DNA of 64,000 bases from Rickettsiales bacterium (GCA_947442475.1 CANEVP010000003.1:17204-81203), one strand, 5' to 3'. Positions 2,105 through 50,879 are shown, numbered from the stretch's first letter. Notes: generated by a model not told the origin, from the letters alone. Numbers and translations: made by a program.

Positions 2105-2165
2105 CCCTGATGGGAATTTGTACGTTCATGAAAAACCATAACCAAAAAATGTCAACCAAAGACTT

Positions 2166-4339: not shown

Positions 4340-4347
4340 GAAAAATT

Positions 4348-5367: not shown

Positions 5368-5370
5368 ACC

Positions 5371-11597: not shown

Positions 11598-11624
11598 GGT
11601 GGGCTTACGAGCCCGCCTTTTTTA
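11598..11624 (+). terminator. Terminator hairpin at the distal end of the array, abutting the stop of the convergent ligase gene
   Basis: GGTGGGC-TTACGA-GCCCGCC forms a stem with one G-U pair on the + strand RNA, followed by TTTTTTA. It overlaps the ligase stop codon at 11622-11624. Confidence 0.6.
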
Positions 11625-12452
11625 TTGCTCGTTTCTCTCGCGCCAAAAGCTGGCGAATCTTGGAGTGCCATTTTTGGTTTTGCCGAAAAATTTGTAGGTA
11701 ATTGTAGCGCCGATTTTAGGTGGGTTTTTTCTTTGTTCTTCACTGAAGCCACTGCCGATTTTGAAGCGGATTTTTTCTTGATTTTCAACCAGCAGCGCGC
11801 CGAGTTTTTTGGCGTTTTTTCCTTTGCCTTCAATGTGCGCAATTACTTGCGCTTCAGCATCTTCGAAGGTTTTTAGCTTTAATAAATCATCAGTTCTTTT
11901 GGCAGCGTAGTGCGAATTTTTGCGATGCAGCATTAAGCCTTCGCCGCCATTTTTTACCGTAAGATTTAGCAGTTTTTTAAGTGCCTCAGCATCTTCAACT
12001 TCGAACTGATCGATTACTTGTAAATATTTTGAGTCAGCCTGCGCCGCCAATATTTTCATGGCTTCATAACGCTTAGAAAAAACTTCTGAACTTTTTGGTA
12101 AATCAAAAATCATAAAACGCACTTCGCGCCAAGCGGCGTCATCGCAGCTTTGGCAGCGAATGATTTGCGAAACTTTTTCAAAACTGCCGCGATTAATCCA
12201 TAATTCACCGTCAAGGCCTTGGCTTGGAAAATTTTTTACAAACCACTGCGGCGCATTAATTAAATTGCCTTGGCGCGAAATTAATTTTTCACCATCCCAA
12301 TAGCCGCGCACTCCGTCGAGTTTTTCGCTGACTAAAAATTCTTCGAGATTAATGCCTTCAGAGTAAAGATTTGCTAACTGAATTTGCGGCGCTTGAGCAA
12401 AAACAACATCAAAAAAACACAGGAAGAAAATTAAAAAAAAGCGGTAAAGCAT
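11622..12452 (-). CDS. ATP-dependent DNA ligase, minimal LigE-type, with N-terminal signal peptide
   Basis: 276 aa. It has a signal peptide MLYRFFLIFFLCFFDVVFAQA and adenylation motif I SEKLDGVRGYWDG. The two-domain size is typical of periplasmic Lig E ligases. Confidence 0.8.
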   Translation of the reverse strand: MLYRFFLIFFLCFFDVVFAQAPQIQLANLYSEGINLEEFLVSEKLDGVRGYWDGEKLISRQGNLINAPQWFVKNFPSQGLDGELWINRGSFEKVSQIIRCQSCDDAAWREVRFMIFDLPKSSEVFSKRYEAMKILAAQADSKYLQVIDQFEVEDAEALKKLLNLTVKNGGEGLMLHRKNSHYAAKRTDDLLKLKTFEDAEAQVIAHIEGKGKNAKKLGALLVENQEKIRFKIGSGFSEEQRKNPPKIGATITYKFFGKTKNGTPRFASFWRERNEQ

Positions 12453-28890: not shown

Positions 28891-29359
28891 GCGCAACACC
28901 TCCCTCAATTCCATCCCCCAACAACTCAACTTGGTCGCGAAGCACATACTTGCCATGCCATCCGCCAACATGAAGCTCTCTGTTGGTGATGATATCTAAA
29001 TTATGCCCGCCAGCTAAACCATCTCGCCGCAAAGCTCGGATGTATTCACTGAGCCTCAGCGCAAAAGTTTTGGCTATTTCTAAGGCATTGCAACCAGCCT
29101 CTTTATGCTCAACTAAGCATTTGAGAGTCTTTGCTTTTTGTCCACGTAATCGAAAAACAATTTCTTGGTTGTTTTTGATTAGCTTGAAATCGGCGATTTG
29201 GGTTTCTGGTTTTTGGTTGCCAATAAATTGGCTAGATTTTATGTTCATGGCTACTCCATTGAATTTATTGAGATGCGAGTTTTTAGAGCCTGTAATCACA
29301 CAAGTTTTGCCGACCGAGTGATTGCAGGTTTTTTCATTTTGACGACTGCTATTAGGCAT
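28883..29359 (-). CDS. Winged-helix DNA-binding protein of island/satellite type
   Basis: The C-terminal half LKCLVEHKEAGCNALEIAKTFALRLSEYIRALRRDGLAGGHNLDIITNRE..HGKYVL is winged-helix-like. GGAGGG lies 8 nt upstream of the ATG at 29359. An alternative start is at 29248. Confidence 0.45.
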   Translation of the reverse strand: MPNSSRQNEKTCNHSVGKTCVITGSKNSHLNKFNGVAMNIKSSQFIGNQKPETQIADFKLIKNNQEIVFRLRGQKAKTLKCLVEHKEAGCNALEIAKTFALRLSEYIRALRRDGLAGGHNLDIITNRELHVGGWHGKYVLRDQVELLGDGIEGGVAHD

Positions 29360-29561
29360 GATTATTGCCCTCCATCCACTCGAAGAACCTTTCTTCCAAG
29401 ATGTAGATTTTTCTTCCCACCTTGCGGATGCATTTTGCAAATCCGTTTTGGCTTCCAAAAAATATCCAAGAACGCACCGCGCCCTCGCTAAGATTTTGCC
29501 TCTCACAAAACACTTTTACTGAAAAGTATTTTGGACAGGACTCGATGTTTTGAGTTGTCAT
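29352..29561 (-). CDS. AlpA/excisionase-like small HTH protein
   Basis: 69 aa. It has FSVKVFCERQNLSEGAVRSWIF..KVGRKIYILEERFFEWM and is the first gene of the alpA-wHTH-ATPase operon. Confidence 0.5.
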   Translation of the reverse strand: MTTQNIESCPKYFSVKVFCERQNLSEGAVRSWIFFGSQNGFAKCIRKVGRKIYILEERFFEWMEGNNHA

Positions 29562-29757
29562 GATTTAAGTTTTTTGTTTGATAGACGAAGACAAATTGCA
29601 AAAGCGCAAAATGCATGAGCATCGTAGACAGCAGAGGGCGATAAGGGCAATTCAATCAATCATAACAGCACAAAATAGCGTTATGATTTTGTGTTATGAT
29701 TTTTGAGTGTTGATTTTATTGGCTTGAGAAAAATCAAAACGGAGGCGTTGCAAAATG

Positions 29758-31248
29758 TTATGATTTTTTGACGTTATTTCTTGGTCTTCCTCCCTTTTTC
29801 CACGGGTGATTTTCTGGTAATTTTCCAACAACTTCCTTCCAGCATTTTTCTATGTCTCTGTCAGATAATTTGTATTCACTTATTCCAATTTTTTGATAAG
29901 AATTACCGCTATTGTAGCTTATTTTTGGTAGCAATTTTTTATCCGGATTTCTCTGGATGTCAGCGCTTAATCTAGCTTTAAACTCAGCCAATTTTTTTGA
30001 TTTTTGATTAACCAAATTCTTTGGCGTTAATTTGGAAAAATATTTTGTCTCCATCGCTTGAACATAGGAGCCTACAAACACCGCCTCTTTGATAAATTGC
30101 TCCCTCTCTTTCAATCTTACATCTTCACCCACAAACCAAGTGTGCATTTCTTTGTGAATAGGGGCGGCAATGTGGACTTCCATTTCTTGAAAAAAAACCT
30201 TTTCGGGAAGCAAGCTGCGCGCACGAAGATATGTTAAATGACCAGAAACGAGTTTGATGATTTTATCCTCACTAACCCCAAATTTCTTTATCCACAAAGC
30301 AGCCAACTCTTGGTAATCTAAAAATCTTTCAGGAACCAATTTTTCTGCCTGCTGCTTGAAATAAAAAGTTCGTGTGTAGTCGGAGTCGCTATTTGCATTG
30401 CATCCTTTTGAACAATAAGCATAGCCATCACCATCAATATCACTGCTCTTCAGGGGGGCCAATTCTTTTGGACAAGATAAAAAAATCCATAAATCAATTT
30501 CCCAATCTTTTGCATCAAATTTTTCTTGGTAAAAATCTGTTAACTCAAAATGACTGAGAAGATTATCTCTACTTTCAACCTTCATCATTTCGCCATGAAT
30601 AACCAATCCACGAAAGCCAGTTTGTTTTTGAGAAATAATTAGATCGCCATATTCCTTGTTCGGCGCTTGATCCATCCATCTTTTACCAGTTTTTAAAACA
30701 TACTCAAACTGCTCTTTTGGAATAAGAAAATTTTTTGGAAAAAATACCGAATAATCCACTTCCAAAACCTCATCAGGAAGAACGGTTGCAGATTCTTTAT
30801 CTTCCGCCGCAATGCTTCTTTTGGGGCTTTTTATTCGCTTAGTTTTTTCTTCTTCATATTTTTCACCAAAAGCCTTACGCATTGAGTCTGTTATTTTAAG
30901 ACTCGGCACACCGCCAGACTGCCGTACCACCACAAGATTTTTATCTCTGTTGTGAATTCTCGTTAAAAACTCACTGTAAGTTATTTCAGCAAGCAAGTCG
31001 GCTTTTTTGAGGCCTACTAATCTGCGAACAAAATCATCGCCATCATAAACGTCAAAGAAATCGTTTTTCATCATGTCGTTTAGATTTTCGACAATCGAGT
31101 AAGATAAGTGCGAACCTCTCATCTGATGCCAATTTTCACCTTCTAGTTTTTCACCAATAAGGTCGAAGGCTTCGCTGAGATTGAGATAGTTTTCAGCCTC
31201 TTTTTTGCTAATTTTTTTCTTTGGTTTTGTTGATGGAAGGATAATCAT
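29758..31248 (-). CDS. Hypothetical 496-aa protein, translationally coupled to the integrase
   Basis: It is a long uninterrupted ORF whose start overlaps the integrase stop by 4 nt. I recognise no motif. Confidence 0.6.
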   Translation of the reverse strand: MIILPSTKPKKKISKKEAENYLNLSEAFDLIGEKLEGENWHQMRGSHLSYSIVENLNDMMKNDFFDVYDGDDFVRRLVGLKKADLLAEITYSEFLTRIHNRDKNLVVVRQSGGVPSLKITDSMRKAFGEKYEEEKTKRIKSPKRSIAAEDKESATVLPDEVLEVDYSVFFPKNFLIPKEQFEYVLKTGKRWMDQAPNKEYGDLIISQKQTGFRGLVIHGEMMKVESRDNLLSHFELTDFYQEKFDAKDWEIDLWIFLSCPKELAPLKSSDIDGDGYAYCSKGCNANSDSDYTRTFYFKQQAEKLVPERFLDYQELAALWIKKFGVSEDKIIKLVSGHLTYLRARSLLPEKVFFQEMEVHIAAPIHKEMHTWFVGEDVRLKEREQFIKEAVFVGSYVQAMETKYFSKLTPKNLVNQKSKKLAEFKARLSADIQRNPDKKLLPKISYNSGNSYQKIGISEYKLSDRDIEKCWKEVVGKLPENHPWKKGGRPRNNVKKS

Positions 31249-32312
31249 TGTTTTGCTCCAAAAATCTTACTATTCATCCTCTCCACCACCCCAGCAGTAT
31301 GTGCATCAGAAATATGAGAATAGCGCTTCACCATACTCAAAGTTTTATGCCCAAGCACGCCCGCAATTTCTGCCAGCGTTGCGCCGTTCATGGCTAAATA
31401 ACTTGCGCAAGAGTGTCTGAGGTCATGCCATTTAAAATCTTCAATCTCAGCCTTCTGTAATGCGCTTTCAAAAGGGGTGCGGATGTCGATTGGGGTTTGC
31501 AGATTCTTTGCGGGAAAAACCAACTCGGTGTTTTTGTTGCGGTTTTTGTAGTGCGCTTTCATCAAATCTTTGGCAATGCCAACCAGCGGTAAAGAGCGGC
31601 GCTCGCCGTTTTTGGTGTCGTGCAAAATTATCATGCCGCGGTTCAAATCGACATCTTTCCATTCAAGACTTCTTATTTCCATTTTTCTTGCGCCAGTGCT
31701 AATGCCAAGCACCACCAAAATGTAGAGGAAGGGGCTTGAGCTTTCTTGACAGGCTTCAAGTAATCTTTCGCGCTCTTCATCATTTAAAAATCTAACTCTG
31801 CCACGCGGCTCTTTGAGTTTTTTTATTTTCATCATCGGGTTTTCTTGCATCCAACCCCATTCTTTAACGGCGATGGTGAAGGCGTGACTAAGAACCGAGC
31901 AATAACGATTGACGGTGGCATTGCTTCTTTTAGCGCCCTTGCGTTCGCTTTTTTCTAGCGCCAGCTTGCTTCTATATTCGGTGATTAATGCAGGCGTGAC
32001 ATCTGCTAACGAGAAACTGCCCATGCTGCTTTTCCAACAGCCAAGTTGGGTTTTTTGGTCGATGGTGCTTTTTGGTTTTTGCGGTAAAATTTCTTTGATG
32101 TAGCGCTCAACCAAATCTTTGACGGTATGTTTTTTTGACTCAGAGGTTTTGAAGTGCCTTCCTTCTCGAATTGCTGATTCAGTGTCTTGAACCCATTTCT
32201 TTGCGTCAGTTAATCTGGCAAAAGTTGCGCTTTGGGTTGGATAGCCTTTGAGGCGCACCTTAGCGCGATAAGATGTTGCGCTGTTGGTGGTTCTTTTTTC
32301 GATTGTTGCCAT
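31245..32312 (-). CDS. int: Tyrosine site-specific integrase
   Basis: 355 aa. It has the catalytic signature ..TGARKMEI.. HDLRHSCASYLAMNG .. LGHKTLSMVKRYSH and lies adjacent to tRNA-Thr. Confidence 0.93.
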   Translation of the reverse strand: MATIEKRTTNSATSYRAKVRLKGYPTQSATFARLTDAKKWVQDTESAIREGRHFKTSESKKHTVKDLVERYIKEILPQKPKSTIDQKTQLGCWKSSMGSFSLADVTPALITEYRSKLALEKSERKGAKRSNATVNRYCSVLSHAFTIAVKEWGWMQENPMMKIKKLKEPRGRVRFLNDEERERLLEACQESSSPFLYILVVLGISTGARKMEIRSLEWKDVDLNRGMIILHDTKNGERRSLPLVGIAKDLMKAHYKNRNKNTELVFPAKNLQTPIDIRTPFESALQKAEIEDFKWHDLRHSCASYLAMNGATLAEIAGVLGHKTLSMVKRYSHISDAHTAGVVERMNSKIFGAKQ

Positions 32313-32457
32313 TTGCGTGATTTTTTATTTCTAAAATTCGATTTCGCAAAAAACTAGAAATCACCACAATAAAATGCAACAACTGATGACTAATCAGAAG
32401 TAAAATCTTTCTAAAGCATTGATAACAAAGGAAATAAAAAACCAGACTTTGTCTTTT

Positions 32458-32474
32458 GGGACACTTAAGGGACA
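32458..32474 (-). repeat. Inverted copy of the GTGTCCC half-site pair (TGTCCCTTAAGTGTCCC on the minus strand)
   Basis: The + strand reads GGGACACTTAAGGGACA. It lies about 150 bp upstream of the int start. Confidence 0.55.
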
Positions 32475-32600
32475 TTTTTAAGACAAAATCATGCCAAAAG
32501 ATTAAAAAAACTCTTTTGTTTAGGCGGTAAGAATAAGGCTAAGAAAAAATGAAGAAGAAAAACTTATCTGCTTAAGGATTGTTGCAGTTTTTGATGTTTT

Positions 32601-32620
32601 AGTGTCCCGCCAGTGTCCCA
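32601..32620 (+). repeat. Island-end 20-mer AGTGTCCCGCCAGTGTCCCA, copy 2
   Basis: It is an exact copy of 24516-24535 and lies 45 bp inside the tRNA-proximal att repeat. Confidence 0.85.
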
Positions 32621-32668
32621 TTTGGAATTTTTTGAGAACTGATAATTTGGCTGGAGACTAGAGAGAGA

Positions 32669-32743
32669 TGGTGCCGAATGTCGGATTTGAACTGACGACC
32701 TACTGTTTACAAGACAGTTGCTCTACCACTGAGCTAATTCGGC
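32669..32743 (-). tRNA. tRNA-Thr (UGU)
   Basis: The reverse complement reads GCCGAAT-TA-GCTC-AGTGGTA-GAGC-A-ACTGT-CTTGTAA-ACAGT-AGGTC-GTCAG-TTCAAAT-CCGAC-ATTCGGC-ACCA. The anticodon is TGT, and the T stem has one A-C mismatch. Confidence 0.92.
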
Positions 32744-38158: not shown

Positions 38159-38956
38159 CTAAGAAAAATCAAATTTCGTTTCAATCGGAACGTGATCTGA
38201 AGGCTGGGTCAGACTGCGAAAATCTTTGTAAATTTTCATCGACTTAATCTGCTTTTTTAAATTTGGTGTCGCCCAAATGTGATCGAGTCTGCGACCTTTA
38301 TCAGCACCCAGCGGGTCTTTCGCGCGGTAGCTCCACCAACTGTAGAGCTTTTCTTTTTCATCAACAAAAAGTCGATGCGTGTCGATCCAATCCAAGCTTT
38401 TTTGCAAGCGCGCCATTTTTTCCACTTCAATTGGCGTGTGCGAAACAATTTTTAGCAATCGCTTGTGCGACCAAACATCATGCTCGAGTGGAGCAATATT
38501 CATGTCGCCTAAAATGATGATTTTTTTGTCTTTTTGCGGCGCGAAATAATCAGTCATCCAATCAACAAATTTCAGCTTGTGGTCAAACTTGTCATTAAGC
38601 AAAACGTCAGGAATATCGCCACCCGCCGGCACATAAAAATTATGCAAAGCAACTTCGCCAACCTTGGTTTGCAACGTGGCGCAAATGTGACGCTTGTGAC
38701 CGTAATTTTCGATGTCGATTTTCTCAATTTTTGTCAGCGGAAATTTCGAAATAATCGCCACGCCATTGTAAGATTTTTCACCAGAGAATTCGACAAAATC
38801 AAAACCCAAAGCTTTAACTTCCAGCAACGGAAAATCGACCTCTTGCACTTTTATTTCTTGCAGACAAATCACGTCTGGCGTGTTTTCGGCAACAAATTTT
38901 TTTAACAGCGGCAGGCGCAAGCGCAGCGAATTAATGTTCCAAGAAACGATTTTCAT
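38159..38956 (-). CDS. xth: Exodeoxyribonuclease III
   Basis: 265 aa. It has MKIVSWNINSLR, CLQE, LGDMNIAP, and SDHVP at the C-terminus. Confidence 0.95.
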   Translation of the reverse strand: MKIVSWNINSLRLRLPLLKKFVAENTPDVICLQEIKVQEVDFPLLEVKALGFDFVEFSGEKSYNGVAIISKFPLTKIEKIDIENYGHKRHICATLQTKVGEVALHNFYVPAGGDIPDVLLNDKFDHKLKFVDWMTDYFAPQKDKKIIILGDMNIAPLEHDVWSHKRLLKIVSHTPIEVEKMARLQKSLDWIDTHRLFVDEKEKLYSWWSYRAKDPLGADKGRRLDHIWATPNLKKQIKSMKIYKDFRSLTQPSDHVPIETKFDFS

Positions 38957-38965
38957 GAGTTTTAT

Positions 38966-39769
38966 TTAGAGATTTTTTTCAGTCATTTTCACCGCATCAA
39001 CAGTTCCAATGTGAAAATATTTTCCCGGCAATTCAACGCCGCGAATCCTTTGCATCAGACCATTTGCACCAACTGCCGCTTTGTAAAAATGCGACATTGA
39101 AAAACATTTTTCCGGCGCTTTTTGCAAAATTTTCGGATTGATAATTTGCAAACCAACAAAGGCATGAGTCATTTTTTTATCAGGAAATCTCAGCAAATTT
39201 TCGCCAGCAATATTGAAGTCGCCGCCACCGTGAACATTGCCTTCGTAGCCCAAATATTCTTCGGTTTTTTTCAGTCCCAACAAAATGTCGCAATCGCCGT
39301 TATTTTCTCCCATCGCGGCTCTAACGCGTCCGCTCGATCCCTCAAGGGATCCTGCTTCCCAAGCGTCACAAATGGTTTTAATGTCAGAAATTCCGCCAAC
39401 ATCTTGCCACAAAACATCGCCGTTAATTGCCAAAAGCGGTTCATCTAAATTGATTTTATCGCTGGCAAAAACAAGGCCGCCGCCGGTTTCAACTTTTTCA
39501 ACTTCGCGCGAAAAAATAATTTTCGAATTATTCAAATTTTTAATGTGCGCTTCAAGCTGGTCGGCAAGATAAAATCCGTTAATGATGATTTTTTTAATCT
39601 CAGAAATTTTGTCTAATTTCTCGATTGCGTAATCAATGATCGCCTTGTTTTTAATTGGCACCAATGGCTTGCATATCGCGTCAGTAAGAGGTCTCATGCG
39701 CTCGCCACGACCGGCAGCAAAAATGAAAGCTTGGGTAATTTTAGTCATTATTTTCTGCAATATTTTCAA
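38966..39769 (-). CDS. Sugar-phosphate nucleotidyltransferase (MurU-like)
   Basis: 267 aa. It has the N-terminal [12 protein letters not shown] motif. It lies near tsaE, as is often seen in alphaproteobacteria. Confidence 0.7.
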
Positions 39770-41507
39770 TTAAAAAGCCGCCCACTTGCGCGTCCCACAG
39801 TTTTTTGTAAGTACCGTTTAAAGCAAGCAAATCTTGATGCGAGCCATCTTCAACAATTTTGCCTTCTGCAAAAACTAAAATACGATTCATGTCGGCAAGC
39901 GTTGAAAGCCGGTGCGCGATGACGATTGTGGTTTTATTTTTCATCAAATTTTGCAGCGATTCTTGAATCAAATTTTCGGTGATTGAATCAAGTTGGCTGG
40001 TTGCTTCGTCCAAAATTAAAATCGGGGCGTTTTTTAAGAAAGCCCGCGCAATAGCGATTCTCTGGCGCTGACCGCCCGATAATTTTACGCCGCGCTCGCC
40101 AACCAGAGAGTCGTATTATTCGGGTAGCGCTTCGATAAACTGATGCGCGTGAGCTTTTTTTGCGGCCTCGATGTAGTCGCCCTCAGAGCCGTAACAAATA
40201 TTTTCTTTTAAGCTGCGGTGAAAAAGCGAAGGATCTTGCGGAATCATGCCAATTGCGGCGCGAAGTGAGACTTGCGTCACTTTGGAAATGTCTTGATCGT
40301 CAATTAAAATGCGTCCGGAATTGACGTCAAAAAAACGCAAAATCAAATTTACGAAAGTGGTTTTGCCGCCACCTGAATGTCCAACTAAACCAACTTTTTC
40401 TCCCGATTTTATTAGCAAAGATTTGTTGCAAAAAAGCGGCTCAGAATTTTTAGCGTAAGCAAATCCGACATTTTCAAAAATGATTTCGCCGCGAGTTGCT
40501 CTAAGAATTTCGTCAGGCTCCACATCCTTGATTTGCAAAGGCTCATTGATGATCGACAAAGCTTGATTAATGGTGCCGACATCTTCCAAAAATCCGTTCA
40601 TTTCATTAGCCGACATCCACATTAAATGAATAATCCAATTGTTGATTGTGAACAGCAAAAGGAAGTCTCCCAGCGTCACTAAATTTTGCGCGTAAAGCCC
40701 AATCAAAGCGACAATGCAAAATATAAAATAGATCGAAAAAGTAATGGCGTGGAGAATGTAGAATTTGATTAAAAAAATATTTCTGCGTTTGGAAATTTTC
40801 GTGTAATCATCTTGCAAAGCCTTGATTCTGTTGCTTTCAAAGCGCGCGCCGTTGAAGAATCTAACGTTGGAAATATTGCTTAAAACATCGACCAAATTGC
40901 CCATGTTTTTGGTTTGCTGATCTGCCGTTGCAACTGAAAGTGGATCAACAATTTTCGCCGCTTTTAGCGCCATCAAAATGAAAATTGCTGCCCAAATAAT
41001 CAGGCCGAAAGCAAAAACTTTATGCACCGAAAATAGCACAACAAAAGCGATCGCCAAACTTAAAATTACGTTTAAGAAACTGTAAAGAATGCGCCCAAGC
41101 ATTGGTGGCGTGCAGCCCGCGAGGTCGCGAATTTTATTGGCGAGTGATCCTGAAAAATTATTTTGAAAAAAATTGTGCGAATGTTGCATCGCGTAATCCA
41201 TCGATTCGACGGTGATTTTTTTCTTCATCGCGGGCGTCAAATTCATCCAAGAAAAATCAGAAAGACGCCAAACTATTCCCGGCACGATAGTGAAAATAAT
41301 CAGCAATAGCGCGATTGGCCAGACTTCTGCGACAATATTTTCGCTAGGTGTCGTCGCCAGCTTGTAGATTAAAAGTTTTGAAATGTAAGGCCAAAGCGAA
41401 AGGTCGATCGCGTTGTAAAGCACCACAAAAAGATGCAGACCAACGTAAAATTTGAAGGGCTTAATTGAAGAAAGCAGAAAAGAAAAAGCGGTTTTTGGTT
41501 TTGTCAT
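39741..41507 (-). pseudogene. ABC exporter (fused TMD-NBD, MsbA-like) interrupted by one in-frame TAA
   Basis: The upstream ORF ends ..HQFIEALPE-TAA (stop at 40116-40118). The same frame continues directly as [44 protein letters not shown]... Walker A GHSGGGKT lies upstream, and the signature and Walker B lie downstream. Confidence 0.85.
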
Positions 41508-41659
41508 TTTCTTCTGGTTTTTTCGTTTTTTGGCAAAAATTTCTAACCAACTTTAAGCATTGGGAGAGAAGGAATTGCAGATTATTTCTTGAATTTTCGC
41601 CTTAAGGCTAAAATTCACTAAAAAATGACAGCGCAACTTGCTGTAAAGAGAGTTTTTTC

Positions 41660-42520
41660 TTAAATGATATCCAGCCCGATATCTACCGCTCTTGCTGAAT
41701 GGGTAAGCGAACCAATTGAAATAAAATCAATTTTTAGCGCCGAATATTTTTTGATATTTTTCAAATTGACGCCGCCAGAAATTTCGATCTGAGCTTTTTT
41801 ATTAATTATTTTAATCGATTTATTGATCTCTGATATTGTCATGTTGTCGAGCATGATGATGTCGGGGCTTGATTTTACTGCCTCGGCAACTTGCACTGAA
41901 GTGTCGCACTCAACTTCAATTTTTAGTTTTTGTTTATTTTTTTTCGCCGCCTCAATTGCTTTTGTCACACTTCCAGCTGCCGCAATGTGATTGTCTTTTA
42001 TCAAAATCATGTCACTTAAATTGAAGCGATGATTTTTTCCACCACCAGCCACAACTGCATATTTTTCTAAGGCACGCAGGCTTGGCAGAGTTTTTCTGGT
42101 GTCTAAAATTTTAATTTTTTTATTAGCCAAAACTTGCACAAATTTTTGCGTCAAAGTTGCAACACCACTTAAATGTTGGATCAAATTTAGGATAACTCTT
42201 TCGGCAGCAAAAATTAATTTGGCATCGCCTTGGCCGCGCGCAATTGCTTTCTTGGGGCTTGCGGCGACTCCATCTTGGATCAAAATTTTTAGATCAAGTT
42301 TGGCATTTTTGAATTTTGGTGATTTTTTTAGGGCCGCAAAAACTTCTGAGATTATTTCTTCGCCGCAAAAAATAATTTCTTCGCGAGATCTGATTTCAAA
42401 AGCGATTTGGCTGTTTGCAGGAATAGTTAAATCAGAGGTAACGTCATCAAAAGCGCAATCTTCGCGCAAAGCATTTTCAACAATTTTGGTGATCTCTTTT
42501 TTTAAAGCTTCTTGCTGCAT
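41660..42520 (-). CDS. nadC: Nicotinate-nucleotide pyrophosphorylase (quinolinate phosphoribosyltransferase)
   Basis: 286 aa. It has typical NadC blocks ..ILDTRKT.P..R..EKYAV..GGG.NHR..L.D..LIKDNH.. and IEVE. Confidence 0.9.
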   Translation of the reverse strand: MQQEALKKEITKIVENALREDCAFDDVTSDLTIPANSQIAFEIRSREEIIFCGEEIISEVFAALKKSPKFKNAKLDLKILIQDGVAASPKKAIARGQGDAKLIFAAERVILNLIQHLSGVATLTQKFVQVLANKKIKILDTRKTLPSLRALEKYAVVAGGGKNHRFNLSDMILIKDNHIAAAGSVTKAIEAAKKNKQKLKIEVECDTSVQVAEAVKSSPDIIMLDNMTISEINKSIKIINKKAQIEISGGVNLKNIKKYSALKIDFISIGSLTHSARAVDIGLDII

Positions 42521-43260
42521 TTGCGTGGATCAAATTTTTGTTTTTGCAATTTTGCGAGGCGCGCATCGATGAAATGACGCATGAAATTTAACTCTTCCGG
42601 CTTGATTTGGCGCGCGCCGCTTTCGCTTTCTTTGATTAGAGCTTCAATAACCGCGAAGGCCATGCAGCCGTCACCCATTTCTTCGTGAATGAAAGCGGGC
42701 ATTTCTTTGGTCCAAAATGGCGCGCTTGGAGAATTATTTTTACTCAGCTTGTAAGCGATGTCTAGTGCGCGATTAATGTCATGCATGTTGTTTTTTGCGA
42801 TGTAGGTGGCTTGAAATAACCACCACCATTTTGTATCTAAATCTTTGGCGGCATGCTCATCAAGATAATCAACAACGTAGTGCACATCTTCTGTTCTTTG
42901 GGTTTGCGAATAATAATACGCCGCAATTGCTGGCACAAAATTTGATTTGGCGTTTAAGGTATCAAGCATTGTCATCCATTGATAGACGCGAGAATAATCG
43001 TAATTTTTTAGGGCGACAAATCCGGCAAAAACATCCCCCGAATTTTGCAGACGCGTTGCCAAAACGCGGAATAAAAATTCTTTGTCGCCGAGCGAAAGTG
43101 CTGAAACTAAATATTGATTTGGCACGGGCGGCACAATGTCGAAATGCGGTTTAAGATTTTCGGTTTCTCTCCAAAAAAAAAGCTGACAGATGAAGGTAGC
43201 GACAAAAAGCCAAAAGAAAATTTTGTGCGAATAAAGATGATAAAAGAGGCGCGGGCTCAT
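42502..43260 (-). CDS. Hypothetical protein with N-terminal TM anchor
   Basis: 252 aa. I recognise no family. It is the third gene of the secretin operon. Confidence 0.5.
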   Translation of the reverse strand: MSPRLFYHLYSHKIFFWLFVATFICQLFFWRETENLKPHFDIVPPVPNQYLVSALSLGDKEFLFRVLATRLQNSGDVFAGFVALKNYDYSRVYQWMTMLDTLNAKSNFVPAIAAYYYSQTQRTEDVHYVVDYLDEHAAKDLDTKWWWLFQATYIAKNNMHDINRALDIAYKLSKNNSPSAPFWTKEMPAFIHEEMGDGCMAFAVIEALIKESESGARQIKPEELNFMRHFIDARLAKLQKQKFDPRKCSKKL

Positions 43261-44022
43261 TTAGAATTGCTTCTTTTTGAAGTCGTGAAAAGCCATGAAA
43301 ATCATGAGCGGAATGTAGATCAGAGATTGGATTAAAATGATTTTCAAATTGCTGAATTCAGAAACGCCGTAAGACAGCCACTCGCTTTGAGTGAAGAGAT
43401 CGAGACGCGGAAAAAGTGCCGAAAGAAATTTCAAACTAGCGCCGAGTAAATGGCTTTTTGCTTGGGCAATATCTTGGGGCAAATTGATCGCCAAAACGAA
43501 CATTCCCATTAAGCGCGAAATAATGTAAAAGCCAAATGACGCCATGATCGCCGAGAAAGAATTTTTCAAAATTAGCGAGGCAAGAAGCGAGAAAGAAATG
43601 ACGATCATTAGCTCAGAAAGTAGACTCGCTGACCAGATTAAAAGCCCTAATTTATTGGCCTTAGTTACGATTAAAATTGCCGCAAACAGTGGAATAAAAA
43701 TTAGAAAAGCGGCAACGAAAAATCCGATGATGTAGCTTAAAATAAACTTCTCACGCGAGATTGATTTAGAGATAATGAATTCAACTTCTTTATTTTCGAA
43801 AGCGCGCGCCACACTGAGGCAGACAAATAAAATCATGCCGATGGCAAGAATAGCCCTAGATGATCCGGCGATGTAGGCTGCGGTTGTTTGCTGCGCTTCA
43901 ACGAAAGAGGTTGATCCCAAAAAAATCGAAAGAGAAAAAGACGCAGCAAGCGTAATGAAAAGGCCGATATAGAGACGATCTCTAATACCGGCGAGAAGGA
44001 TATATTTTAGAATTGATTTCAT
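43261..44022 (-). CDS. Polytopic membrane protein (ABC-2-type permease-like)
   Basis: 253 aa with about 6 hydrophobic segments. It abuts the neighbouring genes with spacers of 0-2 nt. Confidence 0.55.
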   Translation of the reverse strand: MKSILKYILLAGIRDRLYIGLFITLAASFSLSIFLGSTSFVEAQQTTAAYIAGSSRAILAIGMILFVCLSVARAFENKEVEFIISKSISREKFILSYIIGFFVAAFLIFIPLFAAILIVTKANKLGLLIWSASLLSELMIVISFSLLASLILKNSFSAIMASFGFYIISRLMGMFVLAINLPQDIAQAKSHLLGASLKFLSALFPRLDLFTQSEWLSYGVSEFSNLKIILIQSLIYIPLMIFMAFHDFKKKQF

Positions 44023-44024
44023 GG

Positions 44025-45569
44025 CTAGTTATTGGTGCCGAAGAAACGACGTCTATTAGTATCAAATTTTTGCTGGAAGTCGCGATCAATTTTGCTAACC
44101 AAAGCGGGACCTTGTTTTACGATGGTTGCCTTGATGAAGATTACAGTTTCGATAATTTCAGTTTCTTTTGAAACCGATTTAAAGAACCAGCCCAAAATCG
44201 GAATTTCGCTTAAAAACGGAACCCCCGAATCATCATTCTTCGTGGTATCTTTCATTAGACCGCCAATAACAATAATGTTGCCACTTCTAACTTTGGCGAT
44301 GGTGTCGATTGTTCTTTTATTAACAACTGGAACCAGGTTTACTGCGCTTACCGCAGGATCTTGCACTGACTTGCTTAGCACAGAAAGTTGCGGCTTAACA
44401 CTCATTACAATTTGGCCAGTTCTTGTATTGATTGACGGCGTAATATCGAGCTGAACACCGACTTCTTCTTCTTGTTTTGTAGTAGTGATGTTTGACGTTG
44501 TGGTTGAGGCGGTTGCGGTGATTGTGCTTTGGTTTGAATCAATTTTAAAATAAACTAATTTATCGCCAAAATTGAGAGAGGCTTTTTGGTTATTCATGGC
44601 ATGAATTCTTGGACTAGAGATTGTGCGAGCACTGCCGAATGCTTCAAGCGCACTAACCGAGGCAATAAGATCTGAGTTAAAAAGCTCACTCGCTACGTAA
44701 GTGATTCCGCCGCCGGCTGTAAATCCGTTGGATGCTGTTAAAGAGTTTTTACTGCCAATCGTAGACCAGTTTATGCCGGTTTTGTAGCTTTCGCTGAGAG
44801 AAACCTCAACAACTTTAGCCTCAATTAAAACCTGAGCAGAAGCTGATTGTTCAACATCCGCCAAGTAGCTTTCAATCATTGCGTGCTCTTTATCGGTAGC
44901 AAAAACCGAAAGGAGGCCGGCAGATTTATTTGAAGAGATTGACGAGCTGCCCACTGGCGCCGACGAGCCATCTTCACTAGCTACAACAGCCGGAGTTGAA
45001 TTAGATAAAATGGCGCCGACGTTAGTTTCAACATCTGACCAAAGTTGACCATCAATCAAATAATCTACGAAATAATTTTTCATGTAAGGCGTGTCGCGCT
45101 CGAAATGCAAAACGCCATTTTCATAGGCGTAGCGCAAGTTTCCAAGAGTCGCGATGCGATCGATTACTTCTTTAAAAGGACGATTTTTAGCATTGATAAT
45201 TACGCCGCCAGAAATGCCTGGATCAAGATCAACGTCGATTTGCGCAACGCGTCCAAGCTCAATTAAAACGTCCTTCAAAGGCACTTGTTCAGTTACCGAA
45301 AATGACAGAGTTTTGCTGCCGCCAATTGTTGGTGGCGGTGGGGTCATGATTAATTTTGAAATGCTTGGGATTGGCGCTTCATCTTTTGCCGAGTCTTTTT
45401 TTTTGGCATTCTGTTTTTCTGGACTCTTCATCAAACTTTCTTTGATTTCTTTTCTGCTAAGTCCATTTTGAGTATCAAATGGATCTATCTTGCCCCGGTA
45501 GCATGAGAACTGCATAGATAGCAACGATAAGACCAGGATTTTTTTCAGGAGATTCTTGAATTTAAACAC
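44025..45569 (-). CDS. Secretin-family outer-membrane lipoprotein (GspD/PilQ/MshL-like)
   Basis: 514 aa. It has the lipobox LLSMQFSC and the C-terminal secretin block VIGGLMKDTTKNDDSGVPFLSEIPILGWFFKS..ETEIIETVIFIKATIV. Confidence 0.8.
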   Translation of the reverse strand: MFKFKNLLKKILVLSLLSMQFSCYRGKIDPFDTQNGLSRKEIKESLMKSPEKQNAKKKDSAKDEAPIPSISKLIMTPPPPTIGGSKTLSFSVTEQVPLKDVLIELGRVAQIDVDLDPGISGGVIINAKNRPFKEVIDRIATLGNLRYAYENGVLHFERDTPYMKNYFVDYLIDGQLWSDVETNVGAILSNSTPAVVASEDGSSAPVGSSSISSNKSAGLLSVFATDKEHAMIESYLADVEQSASAQVLIEAKVVEVSLSESYKTGINWSTIGSKNSLTASNGFTAGGGITYVASELFNSDLIASVSALEAFGSARTISSPRIHAMNNQKASLNFGDKLVYFKIDSNQSTITATASTTTSNITTTKQEEEVGVQLDITPSINTRTGQIVMSVKPQLSVLSKSVQDPAVSAVNLVPVVNKRTIDTIAKVRSGNIIVIGGLMKDTTKNDDSGVPFLSEIPILGWFFKSVSKETEIIETVIFIKATIVKQGPALVSKIDRDFQQKFDTNRRRFFGTNN

Positions 45570-45803
45570 GGAATTTTTCGTTAAATTAGATGTGAGATAT
45601 TTTACTAAGCAGATAGATCAAAAAGATTTTTTATTTGCGCAAGTTTTTTAATCAATCTTTACTCTGCAAAACTTTTCTGCTCAAAAAAATCTGTCTAGAA
45701 AAATTAACAAGATTGCTGCTTTCTTGATTTTACTAAAAGCAAATTTACGATCTCACGCACTTCTTTTTTTCGCACAAATTCTCCCAAAAAATTTCTAAAA
45801 AAA

Positions 45804-47081
45804 ATGCTCAAAGAATCGGATAAAATCTTTACCAATCTTTACGGTTTTCAGTCTGCAAATTTAGAGGCTGCAAAAAAAAGAGGGGACTGGTTGCAAACTA
45901 AAAATTTCCTCGATCAAGGCTCTGATTGGCTGATCCAACAAGTTAAAGATTCTGCGCTGCGCGGCCGCGGCGGCGCTGGTTTTCCAACCGGCATGAAATG
46001 GTCATTCGTGCCAAAAAAAGCAGATCCAAAAGAAGGCAAGCCTCATTATTTAGTAATTAATGCTGACGAATCTGAGCCGGGCACTTGCAAAGATCGCGAC
46101 ATCTTGCGCAACGACCCTCACAAACTTTTAGAAGGATGTTTACTCGCTTCTCGTGCCATCAATGCCAACACTTGCTACATTTACATTCGCGGAGAATATT
46201 ATAACGAAGCTGTAGCGCTGCAGCGGGCAATCGACGAAGCCTATGATGCAAAACTGATTGGCAAAAACGCCTGCCAAAGCGGATGGGATTTAGACATTTT
46301 TGTTCACCGCGGAGCTGGCGCTTACATTTGCGGCGAAGAAACTGCTTTGCTTGAAAGTCTCGAAGGAAACAAAGGTCAGCCTCGTCTGAAGCCTCCATTT
46401 CCTGCTTTAATTGGGCTTTACGGATGTCCGACAGTAATTAACAACGTTGAATCAATCGCCGTTGTTCCAGAAATTTTACGTCGCGGACCATCTTGGTTTG
46501 CAGGTTTGGGTCGCGAAAAAAATACCGGCACTAAAGTTTTTTGCATTTCTGGTCACGTTAACAAACCCTGCAACGTTGAAGAAGAAATGGGAATTTCTCT
46601 GCGCGAATTAATTGAAAAACATGCTGGAGGTGTCCGCGGCGGTTGGGATAATTTGCTTGCCATAATTCCCGGCGGCTCTTCTGTGCCAATGCTTAACAAA
46701 GAAGTTTGCGACACTGTGTTGATGGATTTCGATTCACTAAAAGCTGCAGGATCTGGTCTTGGAACTGCAGGCGTCATCGTCATGGATAAATCAACTGACG
46801 TAATTGCGGCAATTGCGCGCCTTTCGCATTTTTACAAACATGAATCTTGCGGCCAATGCACGCCTTGTCGTGAGGGCACAGGTTGGCTAATGCGCATCAT
46901 GGATCGCATGATTAAAGGCAAAGCAGAAGTGAAAGAAATCGACCAACTTTACAATCTCACCAAACAAATTGAAGGTCACACAATTTGCGCTTTGGGAGAC
47001 GCCGCCGCTTGGCCAGTTCAGGGTTTGATCAAAAATTTCCGCGGCGTGATGGAAGAGAGAATCGCAAAAAATAAATCATAA
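45804..47081 (+). CDS. nuoF: NADH-quinone oxidoreductase subunit F
   Basis: 425 aa. It has the FMN/NADH site [13 protein letters not shown] and the 4Fe-4S ligands [12 protein letters not shown]. No other nuo genes lie in the window. Confidence 0.96.
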
Positions 47082-47395
47082 AATACATGCGAGCCTGACG
47101 AGATAATTCTGAAGCTAAAAATATAATTCTAAGTCCGAGAACAGCGCAAAAATAGTGCGAATTCGCCGAGACAATCTTTGGAAATTCAACAAGGATATGG
47201 AAAAAGGATCGACAGAAAAAAATCCACATTATTGGAAAAACTTATTGCGAAAGTATCGGAATTGCCTGTGTTCGCACTACCTCAAGATTAGTGGGTGCAT
47301 GCAAGCAGGGCGTTACATCTTTCTTAAAGATGATGGGTAATAATGGAGCGGTAAGTCTTGAGAGAGGGGAGGAGCCGGTAAATATTGAATAACTG

Positions 47396-48124
47396 ATGAA
47401 TGAAGCTCAGACACAATCTCCAGGCAAGTATGACTCAGCGATCATCGCTAGCATGGACACTCCGATGTTTTTATATGGTATGACTTGTGAGGATTTTATT
47501 AAATCTCTTCCGGACAAAGTTACGACCAAAGAAATTATCAACCTTGCCAACAGCTATTATGAAAGTGACTCGAACGCATTAGCCACAATTAATAAAGTCA
47601 CAATGAGTGACGAGGAAAGAAAAATTTTTATGCAAAATAGAAAAATATATCGCCTAGATTTCATTACCCTGGATCTCAAGGATTTAGGTAAGATTGATTA
47701 CCCTAAAATGTCGCAAGCTATTTTTTACAGTTCAATTATCGGTAGTATAAAACATCCGGATAAAGTGGAGAAAGAAGTTTCCGATAAAATTCAAAAGCTA
47801 CTAGATCCAGAAAAGAAAAGTCCGGTAAGTGTAAAAAGACTTGAGGAAGCTCTTGATAAGCATTTATCCAACATCCACTCGCAGCTGAAAAGTGAAGATA
47901 AGTTAGATAGCATGAGAGCCGTTTTATACAGCTATCAATTTATGTATGGCGGAGAAGTAAAGCCTATTGGCCTAGCAAACTTTACTGTACCAGCGCAACA
48001 CGAAGGAGAAGCTGTTAATGATTCTCCAGCTCCTGAGCAAACCACAGCTGTAAGCTCAGCTTCTGCGGTTAATTTAGAAACCGGCAGATTGAGTGCAGAA
48101 CAAAATAATTCACAATCCATGTAA
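47396..48124 (+). CDS. Hypothetical protein
   Basis: 242 aa. I recognise no family. Its stop overlaps the ispDF start. Confidence 0.45.
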   Translation: MNEAQTQSPGKYDSAIIASMDTPMFLYGMTCEDFIKSLPDKVTTKEIINLANSYYESDSNALATINKVTMSDEERKIFMQNRKIYRLDFITLDLKDLGKIDYPKMSQAIFYSSIIGSIKHPDKVEKEVSDKIQKLLDPEKKSPVSVKRLEEALDKHLSNIHSQLKSEDKLDSMRAVLYSYQFMYGGEVKPIGLANFTVPAQHEGEAVNDSPAPEQTTAVSSASAVNLETGRLSAEQNNSQSM

Positions 48125-49317
48125 TGAAAATTGTAGCACTAATCACCGCCTGCGGGCGCGGCAATCGCTTCAATAGCGACGATGGAATTCCTAAACAATA
48201 TTTGTCGCTCGCCGGAGTTCCGCTTTTGCGTCACACGATTTTAGCTTTTTTAAATCATCCAAAAATTGATGACGTAATTTGCGTTATTCATCCAGACGAT
48301 GTTGAGCTTTACGAAGAAGCAGCTTCCGGTCTTGATTTACTTAATCCGGTTTTTGGCAGTGATACTCGCCAAGCCTCAATTCGCTTTGGTTTGAAGGCTT
48401 TGCAAGAATATAACCCTACCAAAGTTTTAATTCATGATGGTGTGCGCCCTTTTGTTTCTAAGCGTGTTATTAATGGCATTTTAGAAAAATTAGAAACTCA
48501 TCCAGCCGTAATTCCGGCAGTTGCAGTTGAAGATACTCTTAAAAAATATTCTGACGGAAAAATTGAATGGACGCTGGAGCGCGAAAATTTATGGCGCGCA
48601 CAAACCCCGCAGGGCTTTATTTACAAAGATATTTTAGATTCTCACATCGCTTTCAAAGATTTACATTTCACCGATGATTCAGCGCTAAATGAATATGCCG
48701 GAATTCCGGTGGCAATTGTTCCAGGATCGCAAAATAATTTTAAAATCACTACCAAAGAAGACTTCGAACGCGCTCAGCGTATGGTTTTGATGTTGGTAAA
48801 AAATATAAAAGAAGAAAATCGTTGCGGCACTGGATTTGATGTTCACGCCTTTCGCAAACGTCTTGATGACGAAAGTAAATTCATCAGAATCTGCGGAATT
48901 GATATTGAATTTGATAAAAAAATCGACGCTCATTCTGATGGAGACGTTGGTATTCACGCCTCAATTGACGCGCTTTTAGGGGCAATTGGACAAGGTGACA
49001 TCGGAGAGCATTTTCCACCATCTGATGCGAAATGGAAAAATATCGATTCGCGCGAAATGCTAAAAATCATCAAGCATTTATTGGTAAAAAAAGGTGCGAC
49101 TATTTTGAATTTAGACATCACGATAATTTGTGAAAAACCAAAAATTTCTAAATTCAAAAAAGCGATGGAAGAAGAATTGGGAAAAGTTTTAGAAATCGAT
49201 AAAAGCCGCGTCAATGTTAAAGCTACAACTACTGAGAAACTTGGATTTTTAGGACGCGAAGAAGGAATTGCCGCACAAGCAATTGCTTCGGTTTGGATGA
49301 CGGTTTTAGAAAAATAA
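48124..49317 (+). CDS. ispDF: Bifunctional IspD/IspF (MEP cytidylyltransferase / MECDP synthase)
   Basis: 397 aa. It has the N-terminal IspD motif AACGRGNRF and a C-terminal IspF domain GTGFDVHAF..HSDGDVGIHA..GDIGEHFPP. Confidence 0.95.
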   Translation: MKIVALITACGRGNRFNSDDGIPKQYLSLAGVPLLRHTILAFLNHPKIDDVICVIHPDDVELYEEAASGLDLLNPVFGSDTRQASIRFGLKALQEYNPTKVLIHDGVRPFVSKRVINGILEKLETHPAVIPAVAVEDTLKKYSDGKIEWTLERENLWRAQTPQGFIYKDILDSHIAFKDLHFTDDSALNEYAGIPVAIVPGSQNNFKITTKEDFERAQRMVLMLVKNIKEENRCGTGFDVHAFRKRLDDESKFIRICGIDIEFDKKIDAHSDGDVGIHASIDALLGAIGQGDIGEHFPPSDAKWKNIDSREMLKIIKHLLVKKGATILNLDITIICEKPKISKFKKAMEEELGKVLEIDKSRVNVKATTTEKLGFLGREEGIAAQAIASVWMTVLEK

Positions 49318-49332
49318 AAAATAATTTAAGAA

Positions 49333-50364
49333 TTATTTTCTTATCAACTTCATAACCAACTCAACATTTTCAATTGGTGTTTGAGGAATAATTCCGTGAC
49401 CCAAATTGAAGATAAAAGGATGGTCGCCAAAACTTTCTAAAATTTGCAAAACCTCTTTTTCAATTTCACTTTTCGAACCACAAGCCAACAAAATATTATC
49501 CAGATTTCCTTGCACCACTTGTCCTAAATTTTCTTGCAGATTTTTTTTAGCCCAGTTTTTTTCCAAAGTTTGATCTAGCGCTAAACCTTGCGATCCAACC
49601 TCGCGGGCGAATTCTTCATACATCGCGCCAATGCCACGCGGAAAACAAATCACCGGAATTTGCGGATGTATCTTCTTTAATTTGGAAACGATTTTTTTGG
49701 TTGGCTCAATCACCCATTTTCTTAATTGCTGTGGCGGTAAAACTCCGGCCCAAGAATCAAATAATTTTACTACGTTAGCTCCCGACTCAATTTGATGAGA
49801 CAAATAAGTGATAATACTTTGAGTTAAAATCTCGATTAGTTCGGCGAAGAATTTTTCATCACCAACTGCAGTTTTACGAGTTGTTTCAAAATTTTTTGAA
49901 CCGCCACCCTCAACCATGTAACAAGCTAAAGTCCATGGAGAACCAGAAAATCCAATTAGAGCAGTACTGGCATCTAACTTTGATTTAGTAAGCGACAGAG
50001 TCTCGAAAACCGGCTGTAAATGGTTTTTAATATTGTCTCTTTTGAGATTTTTTAAATCTGCACTATTGGAAATTTTTTGTAATTTCGGTCCTTCATTTTT
50101 TACAAATTCTACTTTTACGCCAAGGGCGTCTGGAATTACCAAGATATCTGAAAAAATAATCGCTGCGTCAAAACCAAATCGGCGAATTGGTTGAAGCGTG
50201 ACTTCTGAGGCGAGTTTTGGTGTGTAGCAAAGTTCTAAAAAGTTTTTTACATTAGAGCGAATTTCACGATACTCTGGTAAATATCTTCCAGCTTGTCTCA
50301 TTATCCAAATTGGTGGATTGGAAAATTTCTCTTTTTTGACAAGAGTATTAATTAATTTATTCAT
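49333..50364 (-). CDS. hemE: Uroporphyrinogen decarboxylase
   Basis: 343 aa. It has the motif PIWIMRQAGRYLPEYR. Confidence 0.95.
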   Translation of the reverse strand: MNKLINTLVKKEKFSNPPIWIMRQAGRYLPEYREIRSNVKNFLELCYTPKLASEVTLQPIRRFGFDAAIIFSDILVIPDALGVKVEFVKNEGPKLQKISNSADLKNLKRDNIKNHLQPVFETLSLTKSKLDASTALIGFSGSPWTLACYMVEGGGSKNFETTRKTAVGDEKFFAELIEILTQSIITYLSHQIESGANVVKLFDSWAGVLPPQQLRKWVIEPTKKIVSKLKKIHPQIPVICFPRGIGAMYEEFAREVGSQGLALDQTLEKNWAKKNLQENLGQVVQGNLDNILLACGSKSEIEKEVLQILESFGDHPFIFNLGHGIIPQTPIENVELVMKLIRK

Positions 50365-50627
50365 TTAAGAGATTAGTTAATTTTATTAGGGCTGTGAATT
50401 ACTTGATTAAAACTTTTTAACATTTTTATTAACAGATAAAAACTTCAAAAAGCCTTGAAAATGAAGGATTTGTAAAAGTTATTAACAGGTAAAATTTTTA
50501 ACAGAAAATTTTTCAACAGAAGTTAAAACTGTGGAAAAAATGTTAAAGTTTTTGATAAGTTTTTAACAAAGAAACGATTGGTGGAGAAGCGCAGAGTTAT
50601 TAACAATTTATTAACAGATTTTTTAAC
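50365..50627. other. Candidate chromosomal replication origin (oriC) region
   Basis: It is a 263-bp AT-rich gap next to hemE. It has 9 same-orientation TTAACA-type motifs and one TTAA-N7-TTAAC (50600-50615). TGTGGAAAA at 50530-50538 is the reverse complement of TTTTCCACA, a DnaA-box match. A near-box TGTGAATTA lies at 50393-50401. Confidence 0.45.
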
Positions 50628-50879
50628 ATGAAGCAAAGGATCGAAGAGAAGTTGAAAAAAAATCTTCAGCCAAAATTTTTAGAAGTGAAAAATAATTCAC
50701 ATCTTCATTTTGGACATTTGGGCGATGACGGAAGTGGTGAAACCCATTTTGCGATTGTGATCGAGTCTGATGAATTGAAGGATTTAAGTGTGGTGAATGC
50801 GCATCGCAAAATTAACTCACTTTTAAAAGATGAGTTTGTATGGGGGATGCATGCTTTGGAGATTATGGTGAAGAAATGA
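50628..50879 (+). CDS. BolA-family protein
   Basis: 83 aa. It has NNSHLHFGH..ETHFAIVIES..F..L..V.AHR.I...L. Confidence 0.8.
   Translation: MKQRIEEKLKKNLQPKFLEVKNNSHLHFGHLGDDGSGETHFAIVIESDELKDLSVVNAHRKINSLLKDEFVWGMHALEIMVKK

Follow-up and report, generated by a model that had tools for sequence, protein, structure and literature searches.

A candidate chromosomal replication origin beside hemE, with mostly A/T-shifted DnaA-type boxes, in a Rickettsiales-like alphaproteobacterium

We consider it quite likely that the gap between the divergent genes hemE and bolA, in a 64-kb stretch of DNA (64,000 nucleotides, hereafter the window) from a Rickettsiales bacterium, is a replication origin. That it is the chromosomal oriC beside hemE and that DnaA reads its boxes of the type TTWTTAACA (A-type boxes) is, as a combined claim, one that we regard as reasonably probable. 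A sequence-only reading of the same DNA had already proposed an origin beside hemE. The core of that proposal is backed by the presence of the box array in 13 relatives, by a switch in GC skew at third codon positions (GC3) and by recurrence of the box type at classical origin sites, but its details have been revised. The element is probably of an ordinary kind with a modestly unusual site sequence, being mostly an A/T-shifted TTWTTAACA.

The hemE-bolA gap and its repeat unit

The placement beside hemE is confirmed by the TIGR01464 match, and on the other side lies a BolA-family gene (Table 1), which is the neighbour of hemE in 13 of 13 relatives. The gap is AT-rich, as had been noted, with a GC content of 23.6% against 40.9% for the whole window (76% versus 59% AT), and the divergent promoters of hemE and bolA must also sit within its 263 bp. 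The exact HemE protein was found on metagenome-assembled contigs only, and its nearest relatives are encoded by metagenome-assembled genomes (MAGs) of lake and groundwater origin that carry the label 'Rickettsiales bacterium'; the host is most likely an uncultured Rickettsiales-like alphaproteobacterium of a freshwater and groundwater lineage. An Rfam scan of the entire window returned three tRNAs only, with zero matches inside the gap, and tblastn searches for dnaA and ctrA, using approximate query sequences, gave no match in the window or in loci L001-L011.

Exact TTAACA occurs eight times on the plus strand of the gap (50417, 50429, 50482, 50498, 50563, 50600, 50611 and 50623), accompanied by TCAACA at 50513 on the same strand and by a further TTAACA at 50541 on the minus strand. 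All nine same-orientation positions had been given correctly in the sequence-only reading. Over the 64 kb this hexamer is seen 46 times against 44.5 expected, and 9 of the 46 copies fall inside the gap; shuffled versions of the gap (20,000, with dinucleotides preserved) averaged 0.54 copies and never exceeded 5, against the eight forward copies observed. The motifs are thus real, but TTAACA(G), as they had been described, is not the full unit, which is really a nonamer. TTWT precedes every forward repeat (9 of 9), so that the unit becomes TTWT(T/C)AACA and agrees with the DnaA-box consensus TTWTNCACA at eight of nine positions. For TTWTTAACA the sole difference is A for C at position 6. This nonamer is present eight times in the gap against a shuffle mean of 0.12, a count reached in none of the 20,000 shuffles, and the remaining 7 of its 15 copies in the window are scattered singles.

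The forward boxes comprise four copies of TTATTAACA, four of TTTTTAACA and one TTTTCAACA. On the opposite strand, TTTTCCACA (the reverse complement of 50530-50538), which had been singled out as a consensus-compatible DnaA box, does fit TTWTNCACA, and TAATTCACA (the reverse complement of 50393-50401) is indeed one mismatch away; a third, ACTTTAACA, is degenerate. In all, the gap holds one strict TTWTNCACA and ten one-mismatch nonamers (the eight TTWTTAACA, TTTTCAACA and TAATTCACA). Where at least three to four boxes are expected of an oriC, that number is reached if A is tolerated at position 6 as a single mismatch and is not reached under the strict consensus. Since the nonamer is best read as a DnaA-box variant, the single consensus-compatible box of the earlier account gives way to some 11-13 DnaA-type boxes. 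The cluster is the only one in the 64-kb window and in each of the relatives' loci of about 20 kb.

Table 1. Features of the hemE-bolA gap and its boundaries (window coordinates; box conservation refers to the genomes compared)
Feature	Coordinates	Strand	Remarks
hemE, uroporphyrinogen decarboxylase, left boundary	49333..50364	-	TIGR01464 E = 5e-120; PF01208 E = 3e-116
Least stable 30-mer of the locus, candidate unwinding element	50346..50375	.	-27.7 kcal/mol; spans hemE start codon
Candidate oriC core	50365..50627	.	hemE-bolA intergenic gap, 263 bp, 23.6% GC
Non-box block TTATTAGGGC, GC cluster beside R1	50383..50392	.	near-invariant alignment columns
R1, TAATTCACA, one mismatch to TTWTNCACA	50393..50401	-	7/10 genomes; adjoins conserved GGGC cluster
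F1, TTTTTAACA	50414..50422	+	10/10 genomes; canonical-type TTATTCACA in L008
F2, TTATTAACA	50426..50434	+	10/10 genomes; 12 bp past F1
Small palindrome CCTT-N7-AAGG	50450..50471	.	conserved; arms covary in relatives
F3, TTATTAACA, isolated, without partner at 11-12 bp	50479..50487	+	10/10 genomes
F4, TTTTTAACA, poorly conserved	50495..50503	+	3/10 genomes, with mismatches
F5, TTTTCAACA	50510..50518	+	9/10 genomes
R2, TTTTCCACA, sole strict TTWTNCACA in gap	50530..50538	-	9/10 genomes
R3, ACTTTAACA, degenerate in window	50541..50549	-	11 bp from R2
Non-box element GATAAGTTTTT	50554..50564	.	near-invariant, 10-genome alignment
F6, TTTTTAACA, window-specific	50560..50568	+	3/10 genomes, with mismatches
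R4 position, TTCTCCACC, decayed in window	50581..50589	-	two mismatches
F7, TTATTAACA	50597..50605	+	10/10 genomes
CtrA-consensus string match TTAA-N7-TTAAC	50600..50615	+	formed by F7 + F8
F8, TTATTAACA	50608..50616	+	9/10 genomes; 11 bp past F7; TTATTCACA in L203
F9, TTTTTAACA	50620..50628	+	9/10 genomes; 12 bp past F8
BolA-family gene, 83 aa, right boundary	50628..50879	+	PF01722 E = 2e-21

The final base of F9 is the A of the bolA ATG, and AGTTATTAACA, in the F3 region, is one of the gap's best conserved strings. Elements other than boxes are conserved as well. It is possible that the TTATTAGGGC block represents a junction of box, GC cluster and unwinding side, a functional reading that we infer, and GATAAGTTTTT could belong to a promoter or to an unwinding element. 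The arms of the palindrome change together in relatives (AACCTTT/AAAGGTT in L007, AATCCTT/AAGGATT in L005), and a dimeric regulator probably binds there; CTTGAAA at the palindrome resembles a sigma-32 -35 element.

Conservation, box exchange and recurrence at classical origin sites

The relatives (n = 13, HemE 61-91% identical) are L003-L008, L010, L011, L152 and L203-L206. All 13 keep the divergent hemE/bolA pair and the same box array, in gaps of 214-301 bp with 15-26% GC. When ten genomes were aligned, seven forward box positions proved to be occupied in at least nine of them, and column identity was 87% in boxes versus 68% in spacers (p = 2e-10).

At five orthologous positions (50393, 50414, 50530, 50541 and ~50581) A-type boxes alternate with canonical C-type boxes, whose forms include TTATCCACA, TTTTCCACA, TTATTCACA and TTGTTCACA. 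Thus, the R1 position is TTATCCACA in L007 and ATATCAACA in L010, while R2 is replaced by TTATCCACA in L004 and L005 and by TTWTTAACA in L010 and L152. R3 corresponds to TTATTAACA in L006, L008 and L010, to TTTTTCACA in L004 and to TTTTCCACA in L005, and the orthologues of R4 are TTGTTCACA (L006 and L007), TTTTTAACA (L008), TTATTAACA (L011) and TGTGAATAA (L205). Such swapping at orthologous positions is most simply explained by a single protein that recognises both forms. In four or five of the 14 genomes C-type boxes are entirely missing from the gap (L010, L011, L152 and L204 lack the C-type consensus box), and 8-10 A-type boxes are present there.

Two side observations concern these relatives. 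In L203, L204 and L206 the block directly adjoining hemE, from the NTP-transferase gene past the secretin gene to nuoF-ispDF, has the opposite orientation to that in the window (38900-49317) and L205, and one end of this rearrangement adjoins the putative origin. Furthermore, L005 is deposited as 'Rickettsia typhi' and L007 as 'uncultured Rhizobium sp.'; both are probably mislabelled bins, since these labels conflict with the shared synteny and with 74-80% HemE identity to other 'Rickettsiales bacterium' MAGs.

In the first 82 loci examined, A-type box pairs (TGTTAAWAA-N(2,3)-TGTTAAWAA) appeared only in hemE gaps of this lineage, with 0 occurrences in 73 unrelated loci. A scan of metagenomes for such pairs yielded at least 120 loci. 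Among the matches listed, most pairs are single chance hits or coding/tandem repeats, and at least nine loci have classical origin contexts. The boxes lie in dnaA-dnaN gaps in L136 and L174, upstream of dnaN amid many canonical boxes in L105, and between rnpA and dnaA-dnaN in L193, where only A-type boxes are found. They also lie between hemE and COG1806 (PF03618) in L097 and L180, mixed with TTATTCACA, and between rho and maf in L091; the match in L152 is the hemE gap of the same lineage. The array of L136 reads TTTTTAACA-aat-TTTTTAACA-gat-TTATCCACA, such that TTATCCACA is in register with the A-type boxes, and L158 has five boxes with an exact 11-bp period, one of which is TTATCCACA. Canonical TTWTNCACA occurs 21 times within 200 bp of the pairs versus 6.2 expected, a 3.4-fold excess (p = 2e-6).

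Domain IV of the DnaA proteins encoded beside A-type boxes in other organisms (L136, L174, L193 and L201) has a largely canonical R399 and D/N-H-T/S/A-T signature and hence provides no evidence for an altered DnaA specificity. Since dnaA-dnaN and rnpA-dnaA gaps are not an alphaproteobacterial arrangement (contig taxonomy being presumed) and CtrA is described as an alphaproteobacterial regulator (PMC9791040), DnaA is the parsimonious reader of the boxes. The scan also turned up long arrays of TGTTAAAAA with a 14-15 bp period on L116, L120, L134 and L187, with up to 13 copies (L120). Pairs of opposite-strand TTTTTAACA lie on either side of these arrays, the contigs are short and AT-rich and show no recognisable genes nearby, and the arrays may be the origin or iteron region of a further replicon or phage.

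Skew, duplex stability and competing readings

Raw and four-fold-site skews mostly reflect coding-strand bias, the CRISPR array and a mobile island; we therefore used a strand-corrected model, in which G and C are compared at third codon positions with gene strand as covariate, over ±10 to 50 kb of local sequence. For the window, the best of 54 breakpoints is 50496, in the gap (log-likelihood gain 11.7), and the switch there has origin polarity. The signal takes the form of a broad plateau over 39-51 kb, and the optimum moves to ~39.9 kb when all codon positions are used. Within ±10 kb, the window and 10 of 12 relatives have a positive GC3 coefficient; the value for L203 is close to zero and that for L011 is negative. 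In 7 of 11 relatives the gap ranks first among the breakpoints, and in L010 it ranks second; L011, L203 and L003 have no clear skew switch at the gap.

Gene orientation had also been cited as suggestive of an origin, genes at 33-45 kb being mostly on the minus strand and those at 55.7-62.6 kb all on the plus strand. Although literally true, this is weak. The immediate flanks run the opposite way, with nuoF-ispDF (45.8-49.3 kb) on the plus strand and clpX, clpP and a DUF6492 gene (51-55.2 kb) on the minus strand. That the genes bordering the gap do not run in the direction of the proposed forks speaks against an origin, as does a gap shorter than the Rickettsiales origins described. Duplex stability, by comparison with the rest of the window, is lowest here: the 263-bp stretch from 50321 is the least stable of its length in the 64 kb (-293 kcal/mol versus -310 kcal/mol for the next lowest), and the 30-mer at 50346-50375, a local minimum and the fourth lowest across the whole window, adjoins the conserved box and GGGC block.

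The sequence-only reading had also reported a CtrA-type box. As a string it is exact, one of two exact TTAA-N7-TTAAC matches in the window, but it arises because the two boxes F7 and F8 are spaced 11 bp apart, and it is missing in some relatives. One could nevertheless read the TTAACA repeats as CtrA half-sites and the gap as mainly CtrA-controlled, with CtrA repressing initiation and/or regulating bolA and hemE and with DnaA using just the few canonical boxes. TTAAC is a CtrA half-site, of which 50600-50615 provides one exact pairing, and the F7-F8 pair holds its 11-bp spacing in most relatives. Moreover, CtrA sites are found at the Caulobacter origin and at predicted Rickettsiales origins (PMC1914354), and the bolA promoter is bound by Ehrlichia CtrA (PMC9791040). 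However, CtrA has no need of the conserved TTWT prefix, which is a feature of DnaA boxes, and among same-strand successive boxes of the 14 genomes a spacing of 12 bp (22 cases) is commoner than one of 11 bp (16 cases). The best conserved box, F3, is solitary. Gaps of the relatives contain 0-2 full TTAA-N7-TTAAC matches, each made by a pair of nonamers, and those of L006 and L203 have zero matches even to TTAA-N7-TTAA; the TTAACCAT motif is absent from every gap examined (14 genomes). CtrA control would also have to accommodate the swapping of orthologous positions with canonical DnaA boxes, and the same pairs in dnaA-dnaN and rnpA-dnaA gaps, an arrangement that is not alphaproteobacterial if the presumed contig taxonomy holds. 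Finally, at -28 to -13 relative to the bolA ATG the match is probably too near for a -35-type activator site. We consider this explanation unlikely; CtrA may still bind at the gap, but nothing observed requires it.

The origin call itself can be challenged by supposing a true DnaA-box cluster that is a regulated divergent promoter or a titrating locus, with oriC elsewhere, for example near dnaA. DnaA-box clusters do exist outside origins, such as datA and the Bacillus DnaA-box clusters, and the present view covers 64 kb of the genome. The gap is short, it holds two promoters, and no DnaA-trio, IHF site or 13-mer pattern was confidently identified in it. Indeed, a DnaA-trio reading of the box-GCC-CTAATAAAA block was discarded, as just three of the first four triplets fit; the IHF consensus WATCAANNNNTTR has no match in the window gap and occurs only in L008, L010 and L011, overlapping a box; there is no GANTC site in the gap, and a GATC search there found nothing conserved. 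We nonetheless judge a non-origin cluster to be decidedly improbable, given the GC3 switch with origin polarity in the window and most relatives, the conserved position of alphaproteobacterial origins next to hemE (PMC1914354) and the coincidence of the gap with the duplex-stability minimum of the window. It is very improbable that the array instead serves some other factor, whether as sites for a lineage-specific transcription factor, as plasmid-type iterons or as stacked -35-like hexamers for hemE and bolA. TTAACA and TTGACA differ at a single base, a pair of weak promoter-like matches begin at boxes, and the conserved palindrome and GATAAGTTTTT suggest that further factors probably bind the gap, but promoter-like matches number 3 versus 3.1 expected in shuffles, and such sites would not account for the TTWT prefix, for the exchange with DnaA boxes or for the recurrence beside dnaA and dnaN. 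The 'stacked -35' idea was dropped after a sigma-70 promoter and terminator scan of the gap gave no excess over shuffles. Plasmid-type iterons were rejected because there is no rep gene nearby and the neighbours are housekeeping genes.

Proposed mechanism, parallels and the surrounding DNA

For a DnaA-dependent origin, the reading that we prefer, the working parts would be about 11-13 nine-base DnaA boxes, mostly TTWTTAACA, with two or three boxes of canonical type facing the other way (TTTTCCACA, TAATTCACA and a decayed one). DnaA-ATP would nucleate on the best boxes and then spread along the same-orientation arrays F1-F2, F7-F8-F9 and R2-R3, in which spacers of 2-3 bp place boxes 11-12 bp apart from start to start. 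Spreading would in turn open highly AT-rich DNA within or adjoining the array, where the weakest stretch spans the hemE start. Binding of DnaA to the A-type boxes is predicted from the sequence, unwinding is presumed to take place at or beside the array, and the gap is assumed to be the genome's only origin. Since the hemE and bolA promoters are inside the gap, DnaA occupancy would probably also affect their transcription. Position 6 is C in every tabulated high-affinity DnaA box of studied bacteria (PMC4285127), and the A-type boxes may therefore be of lower affinity; they may be weak DnaA sites, or sites of another protein.

Origins adjacent to hemE are established in Caulobacter and predicted in Rickettsia, Wolbachia, Ehrlichia and Anaplasma; those predicted for the Rickettsiales are AT-rich and 380-620 bp long, and the described Cori-type origins have one IHF site and 2-7 CtrA sites of the form TTAA-N7-TTAA (PMC1914354). 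Like the hemE-linked alphaproteobacterial origins, the present gap is AT-rich, directly upstream of hemE and endowed with a cluster of DnaA-type boxes, and it likewise includes the hemE promoter, a match to the CtrA consensus string and a GC skew switch (PMC1914354). In contrast to Caulobacter and Rickettsia (COG1806) or the Anaplasmataceae (COG1253), its second boundary gene is bolA; COG1806 does, as described above, flank A-type-box gaps of other lineages (L097 and L180). The gap further differs from described hemE-linked origins in its length (263 bp versus 380-620 bp), in having neither the IHF consensus nor GANTC, in that most boxes are TTWTTAACA and not TTATNCACA, and in that its CtrA sites are inseparable from box pairs.

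Parallels also extend beyond this group. E. coli oriC combines a few high-affinity boxes with same-orientation arrays of low-affinity ones (PMC4285127), and as there, the gap has opposite box groups with one orientation per array, a spacing of roughly a helical turn and more degenerate than consensus boxes. Unlike E. coli oriC, it has no GATC/SeqA sites or recognisable 13-mers, and its array overlaps a start codon. For A at position 6 in low-GC DNA there are two precedents: the Thermoanaerobacter tengcongensis DnaA-box consensus, TTATCNACA, leaves position 6 free (PMC1888806), and in T5-like phages the variant 'DnaA*' boxes TTATCAACA and TTATTAACA alternate with consensus boxes (bioRxiv 10.1101/866236), the alternation being at equivalent positions, as here. 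These are other organisms and contexts, however, and in the present lineage A-type boxes are the majority and, in some genomes, the sole type. As at the Ehrlichia chaffeensis bolA promoter, which CtrA regulates (PMC9791040), a bolA-family gene lies immediately downstream of TTAA-N7-TTAAC, but here two DnaA-type nonamers make up the match, at a distance of 13-28 bp from the start codon.

A more speculative idea, which we regard as rather doubtful, is that the primary DnaA box drifted from TTATCCACA to TTATTAACA in this lineage, L010, L011, L152 and L204 having lost their canonical boxes, and that the same A/T shift arose independently at dnaA-linked origins of other very AT-rich bacteria (L193, for example). 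If so, the recognition sequence of the initiator would follow the base composition of the genome, because DnaA had changed its specificity or because origins ran wholly on 'low-affinity' sites, and these genomes would offer a natural series for the co-evolution of DnaA and its box with base composition. In practical terms, an origin call helps in closing and orienting MAGs and in peak-to-trough estimates of growth rate from metagenomes. Origin finders using the strict consensus TTATCCACA would see one box here and none in some relatives, whereas permitting A at position 6 yields a clear array of 11-13 boxes. A word of caution is also due for AT-rich alphaproteobacteria, in which two adjacent DnaA-type boxes can by themselves produce a TTAA-N7-TTAAC 'CtrA site'.

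Elsewhere in the window we noted several features of defence and mobility. A type I-F CRISPR-Cas locus occupies 37-11100, with the C-terminal part of Cas3 (37-1629), a PemK/MazF-family toxin gene (1679-2092) between cas3 and csy1, csy1-csy4 (2166-6018) and an array of at least 83 repeats with a 60-bp period (~6140-11100), which explains a block of 49% GC. An ENA contig carrying the same hemE begins at about window position 10,395, within this array. A defence/toxin cluster includes genes for a small ATP-dependent DNA ligase (11622-12452), a kinase toxin of the HipA family (12485-13765) and a Fic/DOC protein (24546-25691), together with a type III restriction-modification pair, mod (16213-17724) and res (17764-20391). 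From ~25700 to 32743 there is a probable integrated mobile element that ends at tRNA-Thr (32669-32743) and contains a tyrosine integrase (31245-32312), an AAA_25 protein (27907-28971), a winged-helix protein and small XRE-like ORFs. Its strongly negative GC skew distorts raw skew plots, and the window's only perfect TTATCCACA, at 30288, lies inside it.
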